Shown here one piece after another: positions 4,513 to 11,701 of a DNA stretch of 11,701 nt. Under the pieces are notes generated by a model, which was not told where the DNA came from, searched no databases, and worked only from the letters and a program-made list of their open reading frames with translations. The stretch lies in the UHGV virus genome UHGV-0310186, one strand, 5' to 3'. The translations under genes and the position numbers were made by a program. The number at the start of each line of letters is the position of its first letter. Position 1 is the first letter of the stretch. The stretch is from a virus.

Positions 4513-4875
4513 TTATCTGTCGATTCCCCAGCACGCCAGCGCGCTCTCCTGGTCACGACGGGATACCTGACCGTAACAGTTATTTGAGCGAATACGGCAG
4601 TCCCTGCCACCGTCCTTAATCCACCAGCGAATCGCCTCACACGCTCCCCTGCGGTCACCAGCATTCAGCCGCTTATAAAACGTCGACGGGAAACACTTAC
4701 CGGGGCCAATGTTATAGGGACAGAATGACGCTATACCCGCTTTCTGTGGTTCGGTCAGTGGAACTTTAATATTGCGCTCCACCCATGCCAGCGCCTTATC
4801 CCGTTCAATGGCATTAACCTGGTCGCATTTTTCCTTCGACAGTTTCATGCCCGGAATAACAGGTTTACCATCCAC
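4513..4875 (-). pseudogene. R: Endolysin (phage lysozyme, SAR-endolysin R21/933W-R type) 3' portion, detached from its 5' portion
   Basis: VDGKPVIPGMKLSKEKCDQVNAIERDKALAWVERNIKVPLTEPQKAGIASFCPYNIGPGKCFPSTFYKRLNAGDRRGACEAIRWWIKDGGRDCRIRSNNCYGQVSRRDQESALACWGIDR aligns with the C-terminal two-thirds of P21-type lysozymes. It lacks the SAR domain and catalytic Glu, and begins at a GTG created by the junction. Confidence 0.85.
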
Positions 4876-4915
4876 CTAATCCTCTACTGAAATTGTCAGA
4901 TATATTTCAGCCATC
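4832..4915 (-). repeat. Left composite inverted-duplication block: copy of element a (4832-4875) and element b (4877-4915)
   Basis: 4832-4875 is the exact reverse complement of 5173-5216 (44 bp); 4877-4915 is the exact reverse complement of 5218-5256 (39 bp). Element b contains the 7-bp palindromic arms CTGAAAT/ATTTCAG and a GAGGA Shine-Dalgarno. Confidence 0.9.
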
Positions 4916-5001
4916 AGGAAAAACGCCAGTGTCCTACCGCTGGCGGGCTGAAGATTTAACATATCCAGGGATTCGGAACCGATAAATCCTGATAAATATC
5001 C

Positions 5002-5226
5002 ATGAACACCAAAATCAAATATGGCCTGTCGGCTGCCGTTCTGGCGTTGATTGCCATCGGTGCGCCTGCGCCTGATATTCTCGACCAGTTTCTGGATGAA
5101 AAAGAAGGTAACCACACAACGGCATACCGTGATGGTGCGGGTATCTGGACCATCTGCCGCGGTGCCACAATGGTGGATGGTAAACCTGTTATTCCGGGCA
5201 TGAAACTGTCGAAGGAAGATGGCTGA
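5002..5226 (+). pseudogene. R: Endolysin 5' portion (SAR signal-anchor and catalytic E-8aa-D-5aa-T motif) ending at a premature stop
   Basis: MNTKIKYGLSAAVLALIAIGAPAPDILDQFLDEKEGNHTTAYRDGAGIWTICRGATMVDGKPVIPGMKLSKEDG*: a Gly/Ala-rich SAR domain followed by the lysozyme catalytic motif. It shares the 15 codons VDGKPVIPGMKLSKE with the minus-strand 3' portion, then runs into element b and stops. Confidence 0.85.
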
Positions 5227-5256
5227 AATATATCTGACAATTTCAGTAGAGGATTA
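5173..5256 (+). repeat. Right composite inverted-duplication block: element a (5173-5216) and element b (5218-5256)
   Basis: Same two elements as 4832-4915, each inverted. Order is a then b on this side, b then a when the left block is read on the minus strand. Confidence 0.9.
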
Positions 5257-5259
5257 ACC

Positions 5260-5574
5260 ATGCATAACGATCAACATAATTATGATTTATGCCTGCAAGC
5301 CATAAATGAGCGGGTAAAATCAGAGTGCCTCTTACTCCTCCCACAAGAACACGATGCAGTAAAATCCATTCAGGCTGAGCCGTATGGACATCTCACACCT
5401 GTGACTCTCGGCATTATCGCCAGAGCATTAACACAGCCCATGCTTATGCGTATTAAGACCAATATAAATAACTGGTTGAATGAAGAATTAAGCTACCTTG
5501 ATTGTGAGTGGGACAATCATTACGCAAAAACACAAAAAGAACGCATCTTCAGTCGATTATCCAGCAACAGATAA
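5260..5574 (+). CDS. Hypothetical protein (104 aa), plus strand, convergent with the 268-aa ORF
   Basis: ATG at 5260 preceded by AGAGGA inside element b; 104 codons, lower GC than the flanking phage genes. No family recognised by eye. Confidence 0.45.
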   Translation: MHNDQHNYDLCLQAINERVKSECLLLLPQEHDAVKSIQAEPYGHLTPVTLGIIARALTQPMLMRIKTNINNWLNEELSYLDCEWDNHYAKTQKERIFSRLSSNR

Positions 5575-5583
5575 CGAGCCACC

Positions 5584-6390
5584 TTATATACGCCCTTTCA
5601 GATAAGTCATCCCCGGCTGCATCCAGTCAACAGGTGCTTTCTTAAAGGGCGTATTATCAAAATCACGCAGAAGAGCCTCCAGCACAACTGCATCATTGTC
5701 AGCACCACTGGCCATCATTTCAATCTCAGCTGCTACCTGCAGATATCCCATGCAACGACCAATGCGCTTCATCAGCCCCTGCTTTTTATTGTTCTTCAGG
5801 TAATCAATGGCAAATTCAATGAGCGCCTCACTATGCTGGTGCGATGGCGGTGTTAATTTCCCATTTTCTGAGATGGTTATTTTCCCGCCATCTCCGTATA
5901 CAACAAAGGATGGCCGGTTACACTCCCATTCCTGATCTTTATCAGGTGCAGACGCAATAAAATAACGTTTATTTCCTTCCTCTCCGGCACTTTTAACCGT
6001 AATGGAGTACTCAGACTGCAGACAAGACGCCTCTTTTTCTGACCGCAGTGTTGACGGCGGCATCTTCAGAGAACAAGTAATTCTTCCCGGTAGCTTTCCT
6101 TTGTAGGTTATCAACACATCCTGCGCCTCTAAAATTACGGGGCGCTTTTCCGGCAACGGTTCGTTCCATTCACATAACCCGGCAGCAACATCCATGAAAA
6201 ACTGCTTCGCCTGCTTTTTCGCCTCAGCTTCGTAAAACTCCAGCGTGGCACCTTCAGTACGGTCAAGACTAATCGCCACATCTGGCAACAACAGCGACGC
6301 TTGCCCGTCACCTTCCGGCTTCACAGTAACAGTAACCTTATCCCCGTAATTATTTATCCCCTTAACAACCAGTTCATATTTTTTATTCAT
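5584..6390 (-). CDS. Hypothetical protein (268 aa) between holin and endolysin, translationally coupled to the holin
   Basis: ATG at 6390 lies 4 nt after the holin stop, with a GGGGAGAG Shine-Dalgarno inside the holin 3' end. Long uninterrupted ORF; no family recognised by eye. Confidence 0.65.
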   Translation of the reverse strand: MNKKYELVVKGINNYGDKVTVTVKPEGDGQASLLLPDVAISLDRTEGATLEFYEAEAKKQAKQFFMDVAAGLCEWNEPLPEKRPVILEAQDVLITYKGKLPGRITCSLKMPPSTLRSEKEASCLQSEYSITVKSAGEEGNKRYFIASAPDKDQEWECNRPSFVVYGDGGKITISENGKLTPPSHQHSEALIEFAIDYLKNNKKQGLMKRIGRCMGYLQVAAEIEMMASGADNDAVVLEALLRDFDNTPFKKAPVDWMQPGMTYLKGRI

Positions 6391-6394
6391 CACT

Positions 6395-6610
6395 TTACTC
6401 TCCCCGCGCCGCCTTACGCCGGTCCTCTTTGATTTTGAAATACAGGTTAGTCAGGTACGTCAGCAGCCCAAACAGCAGACTCCCCAGCACGCCTATTGCC
6501 GCCCACTGAGACGGGGAAACCCTGTCCAGCAACTGCAGGAACCAGTAGCCCGTTCCCACCGCTGACGTGGTGTATGACACACCTGTTGTGATTTTTTCCA
6601 TCTGGTACAT
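6395..6610 (-). CDS. S: Pinholin (phage 21 S21 family) with dual-start motif
   Basis: [71 protein letters not shown] is near-identical in pattern to P21 S21 (..[51 protein letters not shown]). Two in-frame starts (MYQM..., MEK...) fit a holin/antiholin pair. GGGAGA Shine-Dalgarno. Confidence 0.9.
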
Positions 6611-6686
6611 ACCCCGTCTCCCGTTATCCGGAAGCTCACAACAATATAAAGACCACCGGCACACACCGATGGTCCCTTGCGCAGGC

Positions 6687-7250: not shown

Positions 7251-7287
7251 CCGCCAGCTTCCATTCCTGCCGCTGGCGGCTTTTTTT
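7251..7287 (+). terminator. Hairpin plus T7 tract oriented for the plus strand, directly 3' of the NanS-p stop
   Basis: CCGCCAGC-(13-nt loop)-GCTGGCGG followed by CTTTTTTTAT. On the minus strand the A-tract precedes the stem, so for the NanS-p transcript it would be a 3' stabilising hairpin rather than a canonical terminator. Confidence 0.4.
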
Positions 7288-7288
7288 A

Positions 7289-9250
7289 TCATGCCGCGAT
7301 GTCCGCGTTGTTCACTTCCACCTTCACACTGTCAATCAGCAGCGTATATGTCGCCGCCTTTGATATGCCTGTCAGTTGCAGTTTGTCCGCCGCCCCTGAT
7401 GCCGGAGATTTCACCAGTGTGAACGGCGTCCCCCGTTTCTCATCCAGTACCGGCGTCACCTGAATGCTGTTGTTTCCGGCAAACTCAAAAGCCAGTGTGT
7501 GCCATCCGTTATCAAAGACCCCGAACGTTTCCAGCTTCGCATTCGGCTTCTTGTGGTGCATCGCGTTCAGGTTCGTCGCATCCGTCTGCAGAAAGAAGGA
7601 CATCAGCATGTCGTTGCCTTCCTCTGCCAGCGTCACTCCCTCCGGCAGGGACGACAACTGCCAGTAAATGCCCAGGGCAAACTGATTCGGCACCAGTGAA
7701 CCCGGCAACTTAAACCGTACGCTCACACGTCCCCCCTTCTTCAGTAACTCCACTCCCTGTCCGGCTGCATCATGCTCCAGAAACCAGATGTGGTTTTCCG
7801 GTTTATTCAGTTGCAGGGCCTTACCTCCCGTAGCCCCCGCATCACTGACCACCGCTTCAGCAATGTTTTTGTTAACATTGTCTCCGCTCGCCGGTTTGTG
7901 ATAATAGCGCCAGCCCTGTGATGCCAGGTCTTCGCCGGACGCCAGCAGACTCATCAGGGTTCGGTTACTGACCGGGGCTTCCGGCTCTCTCTCCGTACCT
8001 TCACCGGAAGGTCCGGTGGGCTTCACCGTATCAGGCTGTTTTCCGGTAATGAATTCAGCGTTTCTCCCGGCATGCACAAGAATCGCCGTTGCCAGACGGT
8101 CGGAAATAATCCCACGACGTGCCCATGATCCAAAATGCGTTTTACGGTCGGCCGTCGTCCAGGTTTTGGCGTCCGTTCGACCACCGGCTCCGTAATACCC
8201 AATATCCGCAACATCCGGATCTTCTGACGGCTCGTTGGTACCCACATTTCGCCCGTTTTCATCCGTCATAAACGGCACAAAGAAGATTTTTTTTGCGGAT
8301 TTCGTCTTGTATGCACCATACACCGCATCGTATTGCGAAGAATAAGTCTGCTTCCAGTAGTAGGTCGTGTCGCCACAAATCCAGGGAACCGATGACGGAG
8401 AGCCCCCGAGACACTGACCTCCGAATTCCGACAGGTCAGAACGATATTTTTCCACCATGGAATCAAACAGCCCCGGCTGAGTGGCGTATGCACCCTGTTT
8501 CAAATCAAACTCGCCCTGCATCCAGACCACTGCAAGCAGAATATTTTTAGGGTTGGCCTTCAGTGCGGCCTGAGTACGGGTAAGCAGGTCCTTGTACAGT
8601 GGCTTATCAACACCCCAGCGTGCCGAGGTCTCGCTTGCGCCGGTGGATTCGCTGAAGGTACCTTCATCGCCCGCCAAAAATGCAGAACCACCACGGCAGC
8701 ACGGAACCAGAAGAATACCGGCATTCGCCGGAATAAACGGCAACAATTTCTTCGCGATATGTAATCCCTGCCCCACGCATCCATACTGAGCTGCGCTGGC
8801 TTTCGGGTGTGAAAACTTACTCAAATCCTGAACATCATGCAGGCAGTGGTCCGCAGGAATAATGTCATTGTAGTTACAGGACGCACCACCCGGCGTGACA
8901 GTGCTGCGACGCGCCAGCTGTTTAATACGCGGGTCCGGACGGTCATATGTCTCCGGCAGCGGAAGCCCTTCACCATACGCCATACCGTTTGACTGCCCGG
9001 CCAGGGCAACAACAAAGTAATACTCCGGGTTGCTGGTGGTGCTGATAACTGCGCCTTCTCCATCCGACGGCTTCACCACCACAGGTGTGGTGACATCACC
9101 TTCCGCCGCAATGGCCTGCATCAGGGTATAAGGCGTGATGGCCACCGGACTGCCAAATGGCTGCCACCCCTCCTTCAGTTTTTGTGTCAGTCGTTTCGCA
9201 AGGTCTGACGGCGATGCCGCCCTGACAACATCATAGTGTTTAAATGCCAT
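7289..9250 (-). CDS. nanS-p: Prophage sialate O-acetylesterase NanS-p-like protein (DUF1737-type N-terminus, SGNH/SASA esterase core, C-terminal carbohydrate-binding region)
   Basis: A roughly 650-aa ORF sitting between the tRNA/toxin locus and the holin, which is where Stx-type prophages carry nanS-p (933W L0105/Z1466-like). Start set at ATG 9250 (MAFKHY, GGTGGAAAG Shine-Dalgarno) rather than 9265. Assignment is by recalled architecture and size, not a run alignment. Confidence 0.75.
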   Translation of the reverse strand: MAFKHYDVVRAASPSDLAKRLTQKLKEGWQPFGSPVAITPYTLMQAIAAEGDVTTPVVVKPSDGEGAVISTTSNPEYYFVVALAGQSNGMAYGEGLPLPETYDRPDPRIKQLARRSTVTPGGASCNYNDIIPADHCLHDVQDLSKFSHPKASAAQYGCVGQGLHIAKKLLPFIPANAGILLVPCCRGGSAFLAGDEGTFSESTGASETSARWGVDKPLYKDLLTRTQAALKANPKNILLAVVWMQGEFDLKQGAYATQPGLFDSMVEKYRSDLSEFGGQCLGGSPSSVPWICGDTTYYWKQTYSSQYDAVYGAYKTKSAKKIFFVPFMTDENGRNVGTNEPSEDPDVADIGYYGAGGRTDAKTWTTADRKTHFGSWARRGIISDRLATAILVHAGRNAEFITGKQPDTVKPTGPSGEGTEREPEAPVSNRTLMSLLASGEDLASQGWRYYHKPASGDNVNKNIAEAVVSDAGATGGKALQLNKPENHIWFLEHDAAGQGVELLKKGGRVSVRFKLPGSLVPNQFALGIYWQLSSLPEGVTLAEEGNDMLMSFFLQTDATNLNAMHHKKPNAKLETFGVFDNGWHTLAFEFAGNNSIQVTPVLDEKRGTPFTLVKSPASGAADKLQLTGISKAATYTLLIDSVKVEVNNADIAA

Positions 9251-9510
9251 GGTTCTTTCCACCATCTGAAAAATAATTCTTTAAAATACCTGACATGTAA
9301 TACAGAAAAAACACAAAACCATACCTTAAATAAAAACCTCATCATCAAGCAGATATGCATGGATAAACTACAAGACGAGATATAAACCACCCTGCATTTA
9401 AATAAACAATAAACAACATCAGAAAAATAATTCTGCTCTATGGTTTACATTCAAAAATATCATTTATACTTTTCAGAACATCACCAGCAAGACATAAACA
9501 AGGAAACTAA

Positions 9511-9846
9511 ATGAAGTGGATTGTGATTGATACAGTTATCCAGCCATCATGCGGAATATCTTTTTCAGTCATATGGAGTAAAATAAAATTAATAATCTGG
9601 TATCAATCGGATGCTTTCTTACCTCCTGAAAGTATATTTACACTGACTCACACAGGTATCATGCTCAATAACAAAGTGCTACCTGTAACCATTTACAACG
9701 TAGCACCATTCAATAAAACATTCTGGAATTTAATCAAAAACAGCCAGGAATGTCCTACAAATACAGATAACGTATTGAATGAATGCTTTAATAACCGTTG
9801 CACTCTGCAAATATGTCCTTATGGACTAAAACAACAAAGTCCATAA
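9511..9846 (+). CDS. Hypothetical protein (111 aa) in an AT-rich moron, opposite strand to the late operon
   Basis: ATG preceded by AAGGAAACTAA; about 245 bp of very AT-rich upstream sequence (9266-9510); low GC, Cys/Asn-rich product. No family recognised by eye. Confidence 0.5.
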
Positions 9847-9880
9847 GGAGTTTACTCACATCTGACAAAATCAATATAAA

Positions 9881-9902
9881 CAGCCCCTCCGGAGAGGGGC
9901 TG
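9881..9902 (-). terminator. GC-rich hairpin; terminator-like for the minus strand
   Basis: CAGCCCCTC-CGGA-GAGGGGCTG is a perfect 9-bp stem. On the minus strand it is followed by TTTATATTGATTTTG; on the plus strand no U-tract follows. Confidence 0.4.
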
Positions 9903-10293
9903 GAGAGTGGCGCTATGTGCCATTGCATGGTGCCGGGTGCCTCCCGGTGAATTCAGTACCAGCACCTGAATCCGCGATTATCCCATATACCTACTCGCTG
10001 ATTGCCCCTCCGCACAGGGGGATTCACCATGCCAGTTTCTTTTAACAAACTCCCCGCAAACCAGACAACAGTCAACCGCCTGAATTGTGAAGTATTTAAA
10101 AATTTCTCCCGCTAACTGATACCCGGCTAACAGTCTGGCGTTTTCTTTTTCAGCAACGGGAAAGCAACAACCACCACACCCGCCACCAGCACACCGTCAG
10201 CCAGCACTGACATTATCCGGCTGCTGCAATGCCACTCACAAAAACAGTAAGCAATCACTTTTTACCGTAACAAGTGATAATCCAGATATGTAT

Positions 10294-10620
10294 CTACCCC
10301 AGATGAGTAATCCGAAGTTCATCCATACCACAGGTCCTGGCTATTCTGTTGTACTCCTGAACAAGAGCAAATAATTCTGAATTAGCAACCATGAACTCAT
10401 CGCAAACCCTCTGAATAGCATCACTATTCAGAATAATAACGTCTCTTCCCGAAAGACGATCAGGAGTACAGAACAAAACTGTCAAACGGCTGAAGGCCTT
10501 TGCTCGTGCTGCATTGACTATATCAATACGCTGCCTAAGGATGAAACACCCCGACGCCTCATCAATATTCACTCTACCCACACCATATGAATGATAAATA
10601 TTTAATGCTGAAAAAACCAT
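10294..10620 (-). CDS. Hypothetical protein (about 108 aa) in the low-GC region downstream of the tRNAs
   Basis: ORF in the position occupied by stxA in Stx phages but unrelated in sequence. Start uncertain (ATG 10620 or TTG 10647). A possible sigma70-like promoter (TTGTCA-17-AAGTAT) lies upstream on the minus strand. Confidence 0.3.
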   Translation of the reverse strand: MVFSALNIYHSYGVGRVNIDEASGCFILRQRIDIVNAARAKAFSRLTVLFCTPDRLSGRDVIILNSDAIQRVCDEFMVANSELFALVQEYNRIARTCGMDELRITHLG

Positions 10621-10760
10621 TAGACCGTATAACAAACACTCAATCAATACTTAACAGAACTTTTATTTTTGACAAACATATAATATTTTCAACAATATCC
10701 TGAGCCAGGTATATTTCAGTATAAGGCTCTGCCGGAAGGAATCTGGAAGAATGAATATAG

Positions 10761-10834
10761 CGCGCTGTACTGGATTCGAACCAGTGACCGATTGCTTAGA
10801 AGGCAATTGCTCTGTCCGGCTGAGCTAACAACGC
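10761..10834 (-). tRNA. tRNA-Arg (anticodon TCT), phage-borne, no encoded CCA
   Basis: Hand-folded cloverleaf: acceptor GCGTTGT/ACAGCGC, D-stem GCTC/GAGC, anticodon stem ATTGC/GCAAT with loop CTTCTAA, T-stem ACTGG/CCAGT with loop TTCGAAT. Confidence 0.85.
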
Positions 10835-10934
10835 TGAATACCGATAATGGACCGCCATCGGGGACCCGCCCCCGCACCAACAACCCTGTTATCGCGTCGT
10901 CTGCTCTTCCTGATAAGCTAATGGCGGTTTGTGA

Positions 10935-11010
10935 TGGTGGCCCTTGCTGGATTTGAACCAGCGACCTGGCGATTATGAGTCGCTCGCTCTCACCACTGAG
11001 CTAAAGGGCC
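10935..11010 (-). tRNA. tRNA with CAT anticodon, most similar to tRNA-Ile2 (ileX/ileZ type) rather than elongator Met; CCA encoded
   Basis: GGCCCTTTAGCTCAGTGGTGAGAGCGAGCGACTCATAATCGCCAGGTCGCTGGTTCAAATCCAGCAAGGGCCACCA folds as a cloverleaf (acceptor GGCCCTT/AAGGGCC, anticodon loop CTCATAA, T-loop TTCAAAT) and is close to E. coli ileX as recalled. Confidence 0.85.
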
Positions 11011-11046
11011 GGGAGCAGAATAATAACGGTCCGTAATTAATTCCGC

Positions 11047-11071
11047 AATAAAAAACCCGCTCGGCGGCGGG
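11047..11071 (-). terminator. tR'-like rho-independent terminator downstream of pR'
   Basis: On the minus strand: CCCGC-CGCCGA-GCGGG followed by TTTTTTATT. Lies about 45-65 nt downstream of the predicted pR' start and upstream of the tRNAs. Confidence 0.7.
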
Positions 11072-11108
11072 TTGTAGAAACTCTTCTAACGTCAGGCATA
11101 AAAGGCCC

Positions 11109-11148
11109 ATCGTTATGACGAATTTACCACAGATTCCGGAAAAATCAA
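11109..11148 (-). promoter_or_regulatory. pR' late promoter with qut-like pause element
   Basis: On the minus strand: TTGATT (-35), 16-nt spacer, TAAATT (-10), then cgtcat and AACGATGGG. This mirrors lambda pR' (TAAATT ... AACGATGGG), where the -10-like AACGAT in the early transcribed region drives the sigma-dependent pause used by Q. Confidence 0.6.
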
Positions 11149-11153
11149 CCTTG

Positions 11154-11522
11154 TTACCTAGTTACCTTTTTTAACTGCCGCTCAGCCCATGCTTCTTCAA
11201 TATCAAACCGGGTCACCAGCGCATCATAGAATTTCTTAACTGTTTTTTCCCATGACGCGCGTGTTATCTGGTTTGTCACCTCGCATATAGCATTAAATGC
11301 CTCCGTTGATGGTAGTCTTTCATAGCCACGACCACCACAACGCTGGCAGTCTCTGATAACAGGCATACCACGTTTTACCGACTCTTCACGGTGAATGGCG
11401 ACACCACGCCCACGGCAATCCTTACAGGCGGTGGAAACCTCACCCTTTCCGCCACACTCCGGACAGGCAACTTTTACCACCTCCCTGACTTTTTTCCATT
11501 CTTCCCAGTAAGACGGATACAC
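11154..11522 (-). CDS. Q: Antiterminator Q (lambda Q family), zinc-finger C-terminal domain; N-terminus short or disrupted
   Basis: ...ACPECGGKGEVSTACKDCRGRGVAIHREESVKRGMPVIRDCQRCGGRGYERLPSTEAFNAI...WEKTVKKFYDALV...KKVTR parallels the lambda Q C-terminus (ARCRDCHGTGRAV...ECGRCKGVGYSRMPASAAYRAV...WSRTVKPLYDALV...LNAVTR). The only in-frame start is GTG at 11522, with an in-frame stop at 11619-11621, so the product is about 90 aa shorter than lambda Q. Confidence 0.6.
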   Translation of the reverse strand: MYPSYWEEWKKVREVVKVACPECGGKGEVSTACKDCRGRGVAIHREESVKRGMPVIRDCQRCGGRGYERLPSTEAFNAICEVTNQITRASWEKTVKKFYDALVTRFDIEEAWAERQLKKVTR

Positions 11523-11701
11523 ACCTTTCGTACACTTTGCCCATACCGGCGGCTTACCATCCGGATACTGGACCTTGTTTGTGGCATCAGTATGAATGAC
11601 AGGGTGCGGGCAACAGAATTACTGGCAGATTATGCACTCAGTCGGTGCGATCGTGTGGCGGCGTTGAGAAAACTTCCGGCAGAAATAAAACCGGTAGTGA
11701 T

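Follow-up and report, generated by a model that had tools for sequence, protein, structure and literature searches.

Stx-converting phages carry stxA and stxB between the tRNAs and Q on one side and nanS-p on the other. What occupies this interval in a prophage whose late region has the same lambdoid gene order and no stx? We addressed this question with an 11,701-nt stretch of the virus genome UHGV-0310186, here called the window, and refer to its tRNA-to-nanS-p interval as the slot. The slot is very probably a composite, widespread accessory module of an stx-negative lambdoid prophage of the CFT073 potB type, with three functional parts. It contains iraL, the STnc100 sRNA, a tiny gene for a DUF3927 membrane protein, and one conserved gene for an uncharacterized 92-aa protein. 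The relevant features of the window are as follows.

6395-6664, minus strand: P21-type holin gene
7289-9265, minus strand: NanS-p-type sialate O-acetylesterase gene (Pfam DUF1737, SASA, and DUF6645)
9444-9510, plus strand: iraL promoter and 33-nt 5' UTR, placed by locating the CFT073 5' RACE sequence in the window
9511-9846, plus strand: iraL, IraM-family RssB anti-adaptor, 111 aa, convergent with late transcription
9872-10061, minus (late) strand: STnc100-family prophage sRNA (Rfam RF02076)
10127-10258, minus strand: gene for a DUF3927/TciB-like small hydrophobic protein, 43 aa (Pfam PF13064)
10294-10572, minus strand: phrog_2873 gene, with a conserved core of 92 aa from GTG 10572
10760-10834, minus strand: phage tRNA-Arg(TCT) (ARAGORN, Rfam, and PGAP)
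10935-11010, minus strand: phage tRNA with a CAT anticodon (ARAGORN; Rfam tRNA, 72.5 bits)
11054-11148, minus strand: candidate pR' and tR' (terminator prediction and hexamers read off the sequence)
11154-11522, minus strand: 3' part of the Q gene (Pfam PF03589 Antiterm, 110 bits)

The late genes all lie on the minus strand, in the order Q fragment, tR'-like terminator, tRNA(CAT), tRNA-Arg(TCT), cargo, NanS-p-type esterase, and P21-type holin, which is the gene order of a lambdoid late region without stx. An earlier, sequence-only reading of this DNA had proposed a Stx-type architecture without any StxA- or StxB-like ORF, and both statements hold. The only ORFs of the slot are those of IraL, DUF3927, and phrog_2873; none contains a Stx domain in searches with Pfam, NCBIfam, and PHROG profiles, and no Stx gene is listed in the RefSeq annotation of identical DNA. 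The stxA and stxB pair that defines an Stx-converting phage is therefore absent between the tRNAs/Q and nanS-p. The window shares Q, tR', tRNA-Ile/Arg, cargo, STnc100, nanS-p, holin, and endolysin with 933W, Sp5, and 75/02 Stx; it differs from them in lacking stxA and stxB and in having phrog_2873 and DUF3927 as its cargo.

Q looks truncated in the window because the window ends (11583-11701) in a copy of the interior of Q in inverted orientation; in identical genomes, the Q gene is 822 nt long. We infer a candidate pR' only from the hexamers TTGATT and TAAATT, 16 nt apart at 11148-11121, which give 8 of 12 matches. A tR'-like intrinsic terminator follows at 11073-11054, and a weak, below-threshold Rfam match to Trp_leader at 11047-11153 was attributed to the tR' hairpin and rejected. 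In identical genomes, PGAP calls the CAT tRNA a tRNA-Ile (AUA-reading). The esterase gene, which PGAP annotates as a SASA family carbohydrate esterase, forms the downstream border of the slot. The GC content is 39% in the slot compared to 50% in the window, falling to 34% in iraL and 29% in the spacer upstream of iraL. The rare codons ATA, AGA, and AGG occur at 5.4 per 100 codons in iraL and 7.6 in phrog_2873, compared to about 1 in nanS-p and terL, and this load in the two slot genes matches the adjoining tRNAs.

The whole slot is 99% identical to that of the CFT073 potB prophage, with the same order of Q, tRNAs, phrog_2873 ORF, DUF3927, STnc100, antisense iraL, NanS-p/DUF1737, and holin. In the CFT073 prophage, a second tRNA-Arg and an IS200 lie upstream, and truncation has left only a DUF1737 fragment of nanS-p, a gene that is intact in the window. 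Among 5,426 complete Escherichia coli genomes, 863 (about one in six) contain at least 80% of the slot; an iraL-type sequence with ≥90% identity occurs in 1,446 genomes. Because this module is common among E. coli prophages and has been catalogued before, the finding is largely ordinary. Little in it is new, given that iraL is published and characterized and that STnc100 and DUF3927 are catalogued families. Its modest value is a clarified anatomy of the tRNA-to-nanS-p interval.

In related phages and prophages, this interval holds stx1AB; stx2c; tciA-tciB; an AraC-type regulator, a PemK toxin, and a methylase; or almost nothing, which bears out the earlier expectation of a variable cargo interval rather than conserved backbone. 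The interval consists of two cargo positions parted by a backbone sRNA. The late-strand position holds stx, tciAB, or phrog_2873 and DUF3927, and the antisense position holds iraL, an IraM-like gene, or AgvB.

In the window, the late-strand position directly after the tRNAs, which is the position of stx, holds phrog_2873 and DUF3927. The earlier description of a toxin slot filled by cargo thus applies to this pair; it does not apply to iraL, which belongs to a family that coexists with stx2 (see below). Both genes would probably be read by Q-modified late transcription, and they might also be read from an AT-rich, promoter-like stretch upstream. The 43-aa product scored 95.6 bits against PF13064 (cut-off 25) and matched phrog_1470, labeled "TciB-like," with an E value of 7.8e-13; its RefSeq entry is WP_000562553.1. 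This label raises the possibility, which we consider unlikely, that phrog_2873 and DUF3927 form a TciA/TciB-like host-protection module (acting, for example, in colicin tolerance, cell division, or superinfection exclusion) and constitute functional cargo expressed from the prophage at the stx position. In other phages, tciA (TolA/TerB-like) and tciB hold the same position before STnc100 and nanS-p, and in mEp460_ev081 phrog_2873 and DUF3927 are followed by a TolA-like gene. However, phrog_2873 has no homology to TciA, and none of the three slot proteins matched a PADLOC anti-phage defence model with an E value better than 0.05. Moreover, the TciB label is an annotation: a literature search for TciA/TciB returned unrelated papers only and no experimental paper.

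The upstream member of the pair lies in an open frame at 10294-10647, which encodes 117 aa from TTG 10647 or 108 aa from ATG 10620. The 108-aa minus-strand ORF noticed earlier is thus a genuine frame, but its conserved part is 92 aa, and in divergent homologues stop codons interrupt the frame ahead of the GTG. The phrog_2873 profile matched over its full length (233.9 bits, positions 1 to 108 of 108). HMMER, run exhaustively against 1.8 billion representatives, yielded only 20 relatives at E ≤ 0.001; the seven that we inspected are 91 to 106 aa long, most of them 91 to 95 aa, with no known domain in any. The protein itself had no match in Pfam, NCBIfam, or PADLOC, or in a sequence search of the PDB. 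It is predicted to form a two-helix hairpin (AF2 model, pLDDT 84.6), and Foldseek searches of this model against the PDB and BFVD returned generic helical hairpins only, all with E > 0.3. Profile and structural searches had been suggested for both this protein and the 111-aa protein; they identified the latter through PDB 8TWD and NF007393 and led no further than these hairpins for the former.

Chains of GapR/UPF0335 headed a PDB profile search of the 92-aa protein, aligned to residues 1 to 47, which would make it a small DNA-binding protein of that kind. We rejected this identity, which is very improbable: the E values of 0.05 to 0.25 are not significant even for the best match, the alignment covers the N-terminal half only, and GapR does not appear in the list of the 50 top-ranking PDB matches of the AF2 model in Foldseek. 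This uncharacterized 92-aa protein is encoded at a virulence-gene hotspot.

Downstream of the pair lies the backbone sRNA. The earlier reading had described about 450 bp of apparently non-coding sequence with a strong hairpin. The hairpin is real, but the stretch (447 bp) is not non-coding, as it contains the DUF3927 gene and the STnc100 sRNA. STnc100 begins 65 nt past the DUF3927 stop on the same strand and matches RF02076 over the full model (positions 1 to 206 of 206; 132.4 bits compared to a gathering score of 47; E = 2.9e-30). Its 3' hairpin at 9881-9902 has 9 bp, 7 of them GC pairs, and is followed by TTTATATT on the minus strand; folding gave z-scores of -3.2 for the minus and -5.4 for the plus strand. 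This intrinsic terminator (9902-9881) is the 3' end of STnc100 and the hairpin noticed earlier. Published STnc_100 qPCR primers match the window copy exactly, and by family match this copy is a predicted sRNA.

STnc100 lies upstream of the esterase gene in nine of nine related loci. In the literature, it is located 75 nt downstream of stx2, and the related PasD is linked to an esterase gene. The window copy shares with STnc100/PasD a full-length covariance-model match, a terminal Rho-independent terminator, and a late-strand location immediately ahead of the sialate esterase gene or behind stx. It differs in that iraL separates the sRNA from the esterase gene. In this phage group, STnc100 belongs to the backbone and delimits the late-strand cargo on its 3' side.

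The antisense position is occupied by the AT-rich (34% GC) 111-aa ORF at 9511-9846, which runs against late transcription, as the sequence-only reading had described. That reading had called the slot ORFs unknown, which is incorrect for this gene: by sequence identity it is IraL, a published and characterized anti-adaptor. The protein is identical to CFT073 IraL at 110 of 111 aa (99%), with V65A as the sole substitution. It scored 162.4 bits against the NCBIfam IraM model NF007393 (cut-off 121) over residues 1 to 110 of 111, and residues 1 to 78 matched the IraM structure PDB 8TWD with an E value of 2.2e-32. IraL is separated from IraM by ≥95% identity to CFT073 iraL together with a conserved iraL promoter region (PMC4045071). 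In addition to its 99% amino acid identity, the window gene has only 3 mismatches in the 133 nt from -100 to +33, one at -1 and two in the 5' UTR.

CFT073 IraL has been shown by experiment to bind RssB and stabilize RpoS (Hryckowian et al. 2014, mBio, PMC4045071). It acts in log phase and binds the N-terminal domain (NTD) of RssB only, and its sigma-70 promoter was mapped by 5' RACE (PMC4045071). For the window copy, we infer RssB binding, RpoS stabilization, and the start site from this near-identical gene. The residues of cluster I, which contact the RssB NTD (I4, I6, W22, K26, and I42), are all conserved in the window IraL, while clusters II and III, which contact the C-terminal domain (CTD) and linker, carry T13S, L75I, H63N, and I64V. 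This pattern is consistent with the published NTD-only binding of IraL. The mapped CFT073 start and -10 element are conserved in the window; in our reading of the hexamers, a -35-like TTTACA lies at 9444-9449, with a short spacer of 15 nt, the -10 TATACT lies at 9465-9470, and the start is A 9478. Reading of the sequence upstream of iraL did not reveal a canonical PhoP box. Only two TGTTTA hexamers are present, and the distance between their starts is 7 nt instead of 11, which makes the candidate non-canonical.

K-12 IraM, a PhoPQ-induced anti-adaptor with a known structure (8TWD; PMC10844676), is 63% identical to the window protein. It belongs to the same family, shares the PmrD-like fold region, and keeps all cluster I contacts with the RssB NTD. 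It differs from the window IraL at the four substituted CTD/linker contacts, and IraL has a C-terminus that is 4 aa longer. The genomic context of K-12 iraM also differs, as this gene lies next to e14. Only the coding region of the K-12 locus aligns with the window (71.5% nucleotide identity), and remnants of nanS-p or tRNAs, sought around K-12 iraM as a sign of descent from the same slot, were not detectable.

Could the slot ORFs instead be remnants of cargo that has decayed, untranslated and with frames that AT-rich DNA has left open by chance? The phrog_2873 frame, at 108/117 aa, was left unannotated by PGAP, its start codon is ambiguous, and there is no clear Shine-Dalgarno sequence; PGAP also flags a plus-strand pseudo-fragment at 9917-10042. 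However, the pseudo-fragment overlaps STnc100 and is probably spurious, and the DUF3927 score is far above its cut-off. Between phrog_2873 subfamilies at 61% amino acid identity, dN/dS is 0.28 at a dS of 1.06; judged from these substitutions and from the narrow length range of its relatives, phrog_2873 is a real gene under purifying selection. Together with the experimental literature on IraL, this dN/dS leads us to reject the remnant explanation, which the earlier reading had named as a way in which it could fail and which is hardly credible.

Least probable of all is that iraL substitutes functionally for stx as a Q-controlled late moron alternating with toxin genes at one position: it does share with stx the location between the tRNAs and nanS-p and is reportedly rarer in EHEC/STEC than in commensals (PMC4045071), but the two kinds of gene coexist in Stx2 phages, and iraL is on the strand opposite the late genes and has a sigma-70 promoter of its own (mapped in CFT073 by 5' RACE; PMC4045071), which also overturns the earlier attribution of this gene to Q-dependent control. 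An IraM-family gene lies antisense between STnc100 and the esterase gene, in the same position as the window iraL, in 41 Stx2a, Stx2c, and Stx2k phage records (for example, 2851 and 1717) and in an O157:H7 Stx2c prophage. Its product is 107 aa long, 72 to 76% identical to the window IraL, and mostly unannotated in the phage records. These phages have stx2AB upstream of STnc100, where the window has phrog_2873 and DUF3927.

The composite module that we favor, with iraL as an independently transcribed part, suggests how iraL could act. In a lysogen, iraL would be transcribed from its own sigma-70 promoter, on the strand opposite the late genes. Its product would bind the N-terminal receiver domain of RssB and block delivery of RpoS to ClpXP, giving higher RpoS levels in growing cells. 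Late transcription reaches nanS-p and the lysis genes only by passing antisense through iraL, and on induction such Q-driven transcription would be expected to damp iraL. The 3' ends of iraL and STnc100 are 25 nt apart, and there is no U-tract terminator on the strand of iraL; therefore, iraL transcripts may run antisense into STnc100. A speculative and rather doubtful proposal is that this convergent layout switches the host stress response between lysogeny and lysis. If it is true, IraL would be turned off when the prophage is induced, leaving RpoS open to degradation, and STnc100 could be titrated by read-through from iraL in the lysogen. On the same speculative reading, but separately from the switch, phrog_2873 and DUF3927 would be an uncharacterized two-gene moron at the exact position of Shiga toxin. 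Beyond this prophage, many Stx2 phages carry a gene for an RpoS-stabilizing anti-adaptor next to stx2, often without annotation, so that a regulator of the host stress response lies no more than a few hundred bases away from the toxin genes.

The late genes of the window lie on the minus strand, and we placed the features between the antiterminator and lysis genes in their late order as follows.

Late-region features of the window
11154-11522, minus: Q antiterminator fragment (Pfam Antiterm)
11073-11054, minus: terminator-like hairpin and T-run
10935-11010, minus: tRNA(CAT); PGAP labels an identical CAT tRNA tRNA-Ile
10760-10834, minus: tRNA-Arg(TCT)
9266-10759: slot, after the tRNAs and before the esterase gene
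10127-10258, minus: DUF3927 gene, 43 aa (Pfam 95.6 bits; match to the PHROG "TciB-like" family; RefSeq WP_000562553.1)
9872-10061, minus: STnc100 sRNA, full length (RF02076, 132.4 bits versus a gathering score of 47)
7289-9265, minus: NanS-p-type esterase, 658 aa (DUF1737, SASA, and DUF6645)
Beyond the esterase gene: DUF1378 (PGAP annotation in an identical genome), DUF826, then a P21-type holin

The slot has 39% GC compared with 50% for the window, falling to 34% in iraL and 29% in the spacer upstream of it. The sequence-only reading had described this layout as that of a Stx phage lacking stx, with ORFs of unknown function in the slot. Both ORFs that it named are present, its strong hairpin is real, and its description is accurate except for about 450 bp called non-coding. 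The observation stands, and the interpretation holds only in part: the supposed main unknown is a characterized anti-adaptor gene, and the "non-coding" DNA carries an sRNA already known and a small gene already catalogued. The holin gene is immediately followed by a 269-aa ORF (5584-6393, minus) with an N-terminal DUF1327 and no Pfam match in its C-terminal ~170 aa; related prophages carry a YdfR-family gene at this place.

Positions 7272-11582, including the slot, are colinear with real genomes. Colinearity is lost at 1-935, 4831-5256, and 11583-11701. The last repeats the interior of the Q gene in inverted orientation, and pieces of the terminase gene, inverted or duplicated, make up 1-102 and 196-458. 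In the endolysin gene, an inner segment of ~340 bp is inverted between inverted repeats of 39 to 46 nt, splitting the lysozyme ORF into an N-terminus at 5002-5226 (plus) and a remainder at 4513-4875 (minus). These pieces are either assembly fold-back artifacts or real inversions.

By its sequence, the 111-aa plus-strand gene (9511-9846) is iraL, a published and characterized anti-adaptor gene. Its product passes the curated NCBIfam IraM model (162.4 bits, cutoff 121), matches the crystallized IraM core (8TWD, E 2.2e-32), and is identical at 110 of 111 aa to a gene product of the potB prophage of uropathogenic E. coli CFT073; RefSeq names it "anti-adapter protein IraM" on identical DNA. Across 9200-10850, CFT073 shares 99% identity and the same gene order. 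The CFT073 gene was characterized as iraL by Hryckowian et al. 2014 (PMC4045071), who reported that IraL, 58.9% identical to K-12 IraM, stabilizes RpoS in log-phase growth, and mapped the transcript 5' end from a sigma-70-type promoter by RACE. We located the RACE sequence at 9478-9510 with two mismatches, which gives a 33-nt leader before the ATG at 9511 and a -10 element, TATACT, at 9465-9470. [quoted passage not shown] This pattern would agree with the published binding of IraL to the RssB N-terminal domain only (PMC4045071). Just 3' of the iraL stop, 9847-9935 (plus) folds into a pair of strong hairpins, at -34.8 kcal/mol and a z-score of -5.4. No U-tract follows these hairpins, so iraL transcripts may extend antisense into STnc100.

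The supposedly non-coding stretch, 447 bp long, holds the DUF3927 gene and the STnc100 sRNA, and the hairpin noted there (9881-9902, together with TTTATATT) serves STnc100 as its intrinsic terminator. The qPCR primers published for STnc_100 have exact matches in the window. In identical genomes, PGAP places a "hypothetical protein, incomplete" pseudogene inside STnc100 on the opposite strand (9917-10042, plus), which is probably a spurious call. According to the literature, Stx2 phages have STnc100 75 nt downstream from stx2, and it is related to PasD, which is directly upstream of the esterase gene. In nine of nine fetched related loci, STnc100 was on the late strand and immediately preceded the esterase gene or what remains of it; it belongs to the backbone and not to the cargo. 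In some prophages it occurs as two tandem copies with small ORFs or other cargo between them (L011:4607-4795 and 5071-5264; L004:2344-2556 and 5650-5839).

The minus-strand ORF, left unannotated by PGAP, matches phrog_2873 across the full 108-position profile, with no match in Pfam, NCBIfam, PADLOC, or PDB. Its homologues, both close and ~60% identical, occur in E. coli and Shigella only. A profile search run exhaustively turned up 20 relatives, and the seven inspected are 91 to 106 aa long, most of them 91 to 95. In the divergent subfamily, stop codons lie upstream of a conserved GTG equivalent to window position 10572, and dN/dS between subfamilies is 0.28 at dS 1.06 (Nei-Gojobori). Together, these results show the ORF to be a genuine gene whose core is 92 aa long. 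On many contigs (among them L004 to L007), an IS3-family element immediately upstream of the homologue's conserved GTG start replaces the N-terminal extension and leaves the 92-aa core intact, which also supports the short gene model. In the AlphaFold2 model (pLDDT 84.6), a short beta-hairpin connects two long helices, and fold searches with the model returned only generic helical hairpins. A GapR/UPF0335 match was not significant (E 0.05). The description as cargo of unknown function truly fits this 92-aa protein alone.

As the earlier reading had proposed, the slot is variable cargo rather than fixed backbone: gene content from Q or the tRNAs up to STnc100 differs among related phages and prophages.

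Late-strand cargo in related elements
Shigella phage 75/02: stx1AB
O157:H7 Z1825 prophage: stx2cAB
JLK-2012 and PPyecE_EH1910: tciA-tciB
Metagenome contigs L008 and L009: PemK toxin, methylase, AraC-type regulator, then a phrog_2873 homologue
Induced and isolated coliphages: small ORFs only
PhiR49_2: essentially none

We rejected alternation of iraL with stx because an IraM-family gene and stx2cAB coexist in the O157:H7 Stx2c prophage, in the order tRNAs, stx2cAB, STnc100, IraM-family gene (antisense), esterase gene. In Stx1 phage 75/02, the antisense position held by iraL in the window is instead occupied by the anti-sRNA AgvB, between STnc100 and the esterase gene (L012:3385-3444, plus). These placements and the cargo differences show that the tRNA-to-esterase interval comprises two cargo positions with the backbone sRNA STnc100 between them. 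In the window, phrog_2873 and DUF3927 occupy the stx-equivalent position and iraL the antisense position.

By tblastn, 46 phage records carry IraM-family genes; 41 have a variant at 72-75%, all in phages of the Stx2a, Stx2c, and Stx2k types (e.g., 2851 and 1717), and most are unannotated. With 107 aa and 72-76% of residues identical to IraL, this third variant (L014:5112-5435 in O157:H7 Z1825) lies antisense between STnc100 and nanS-p and adjoins stx2 in these phages. Our literature search found no paper linking IraM-family genes to Stx phages.

The slot arrangement is common. Of 5,426 complete E. coli genomes, 863 contain at least 80% of the slot, many of these with 100% identity. An iraL-type sequence of at least 90% nucleotide identity is the best match in 1,446 genomes; for most of the remainder the best match is 60-80%, with K-12-type iraM at ~71% among the matches listed. 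We found the whole slot in no sequenced phage record. Its halves occur apart: four induced UK coliphages have iraL together with STnc100, and mEp460_ev081 has phrog_2873 and DUF3927.

ATA, AGA, and AGG codons total 5.4 per 100 in iraL and 7.6 in phrog_2873, compared with ~1 in nanS-p and terL, although the counts are small (regions compared: 9511-9846 and 10294-10572 versus 7289-9265). On these small counts, the enrichment matches the adjacent tRNA-Ile(CAU) and tRNA-Arg(UCU).

In growing lysogens the near-identical CFT073 iraL is transcribed from a promoter of its own, and IraL both sequesters RssB and increases RpoS (PMC4045071); the window copy would be expected to behave in the same way. 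Q-antiterminated late transcription would read phrog_2873 and DUF3927, with AT-rich promoter-like sites at ~10665-10692 perhaps a second source of their transcripts. STnc100 would end most minus-strand transcripts that are not antiterminated; after induction, Q-modified polymerase would pass this terminator and continue antisense across iraL.
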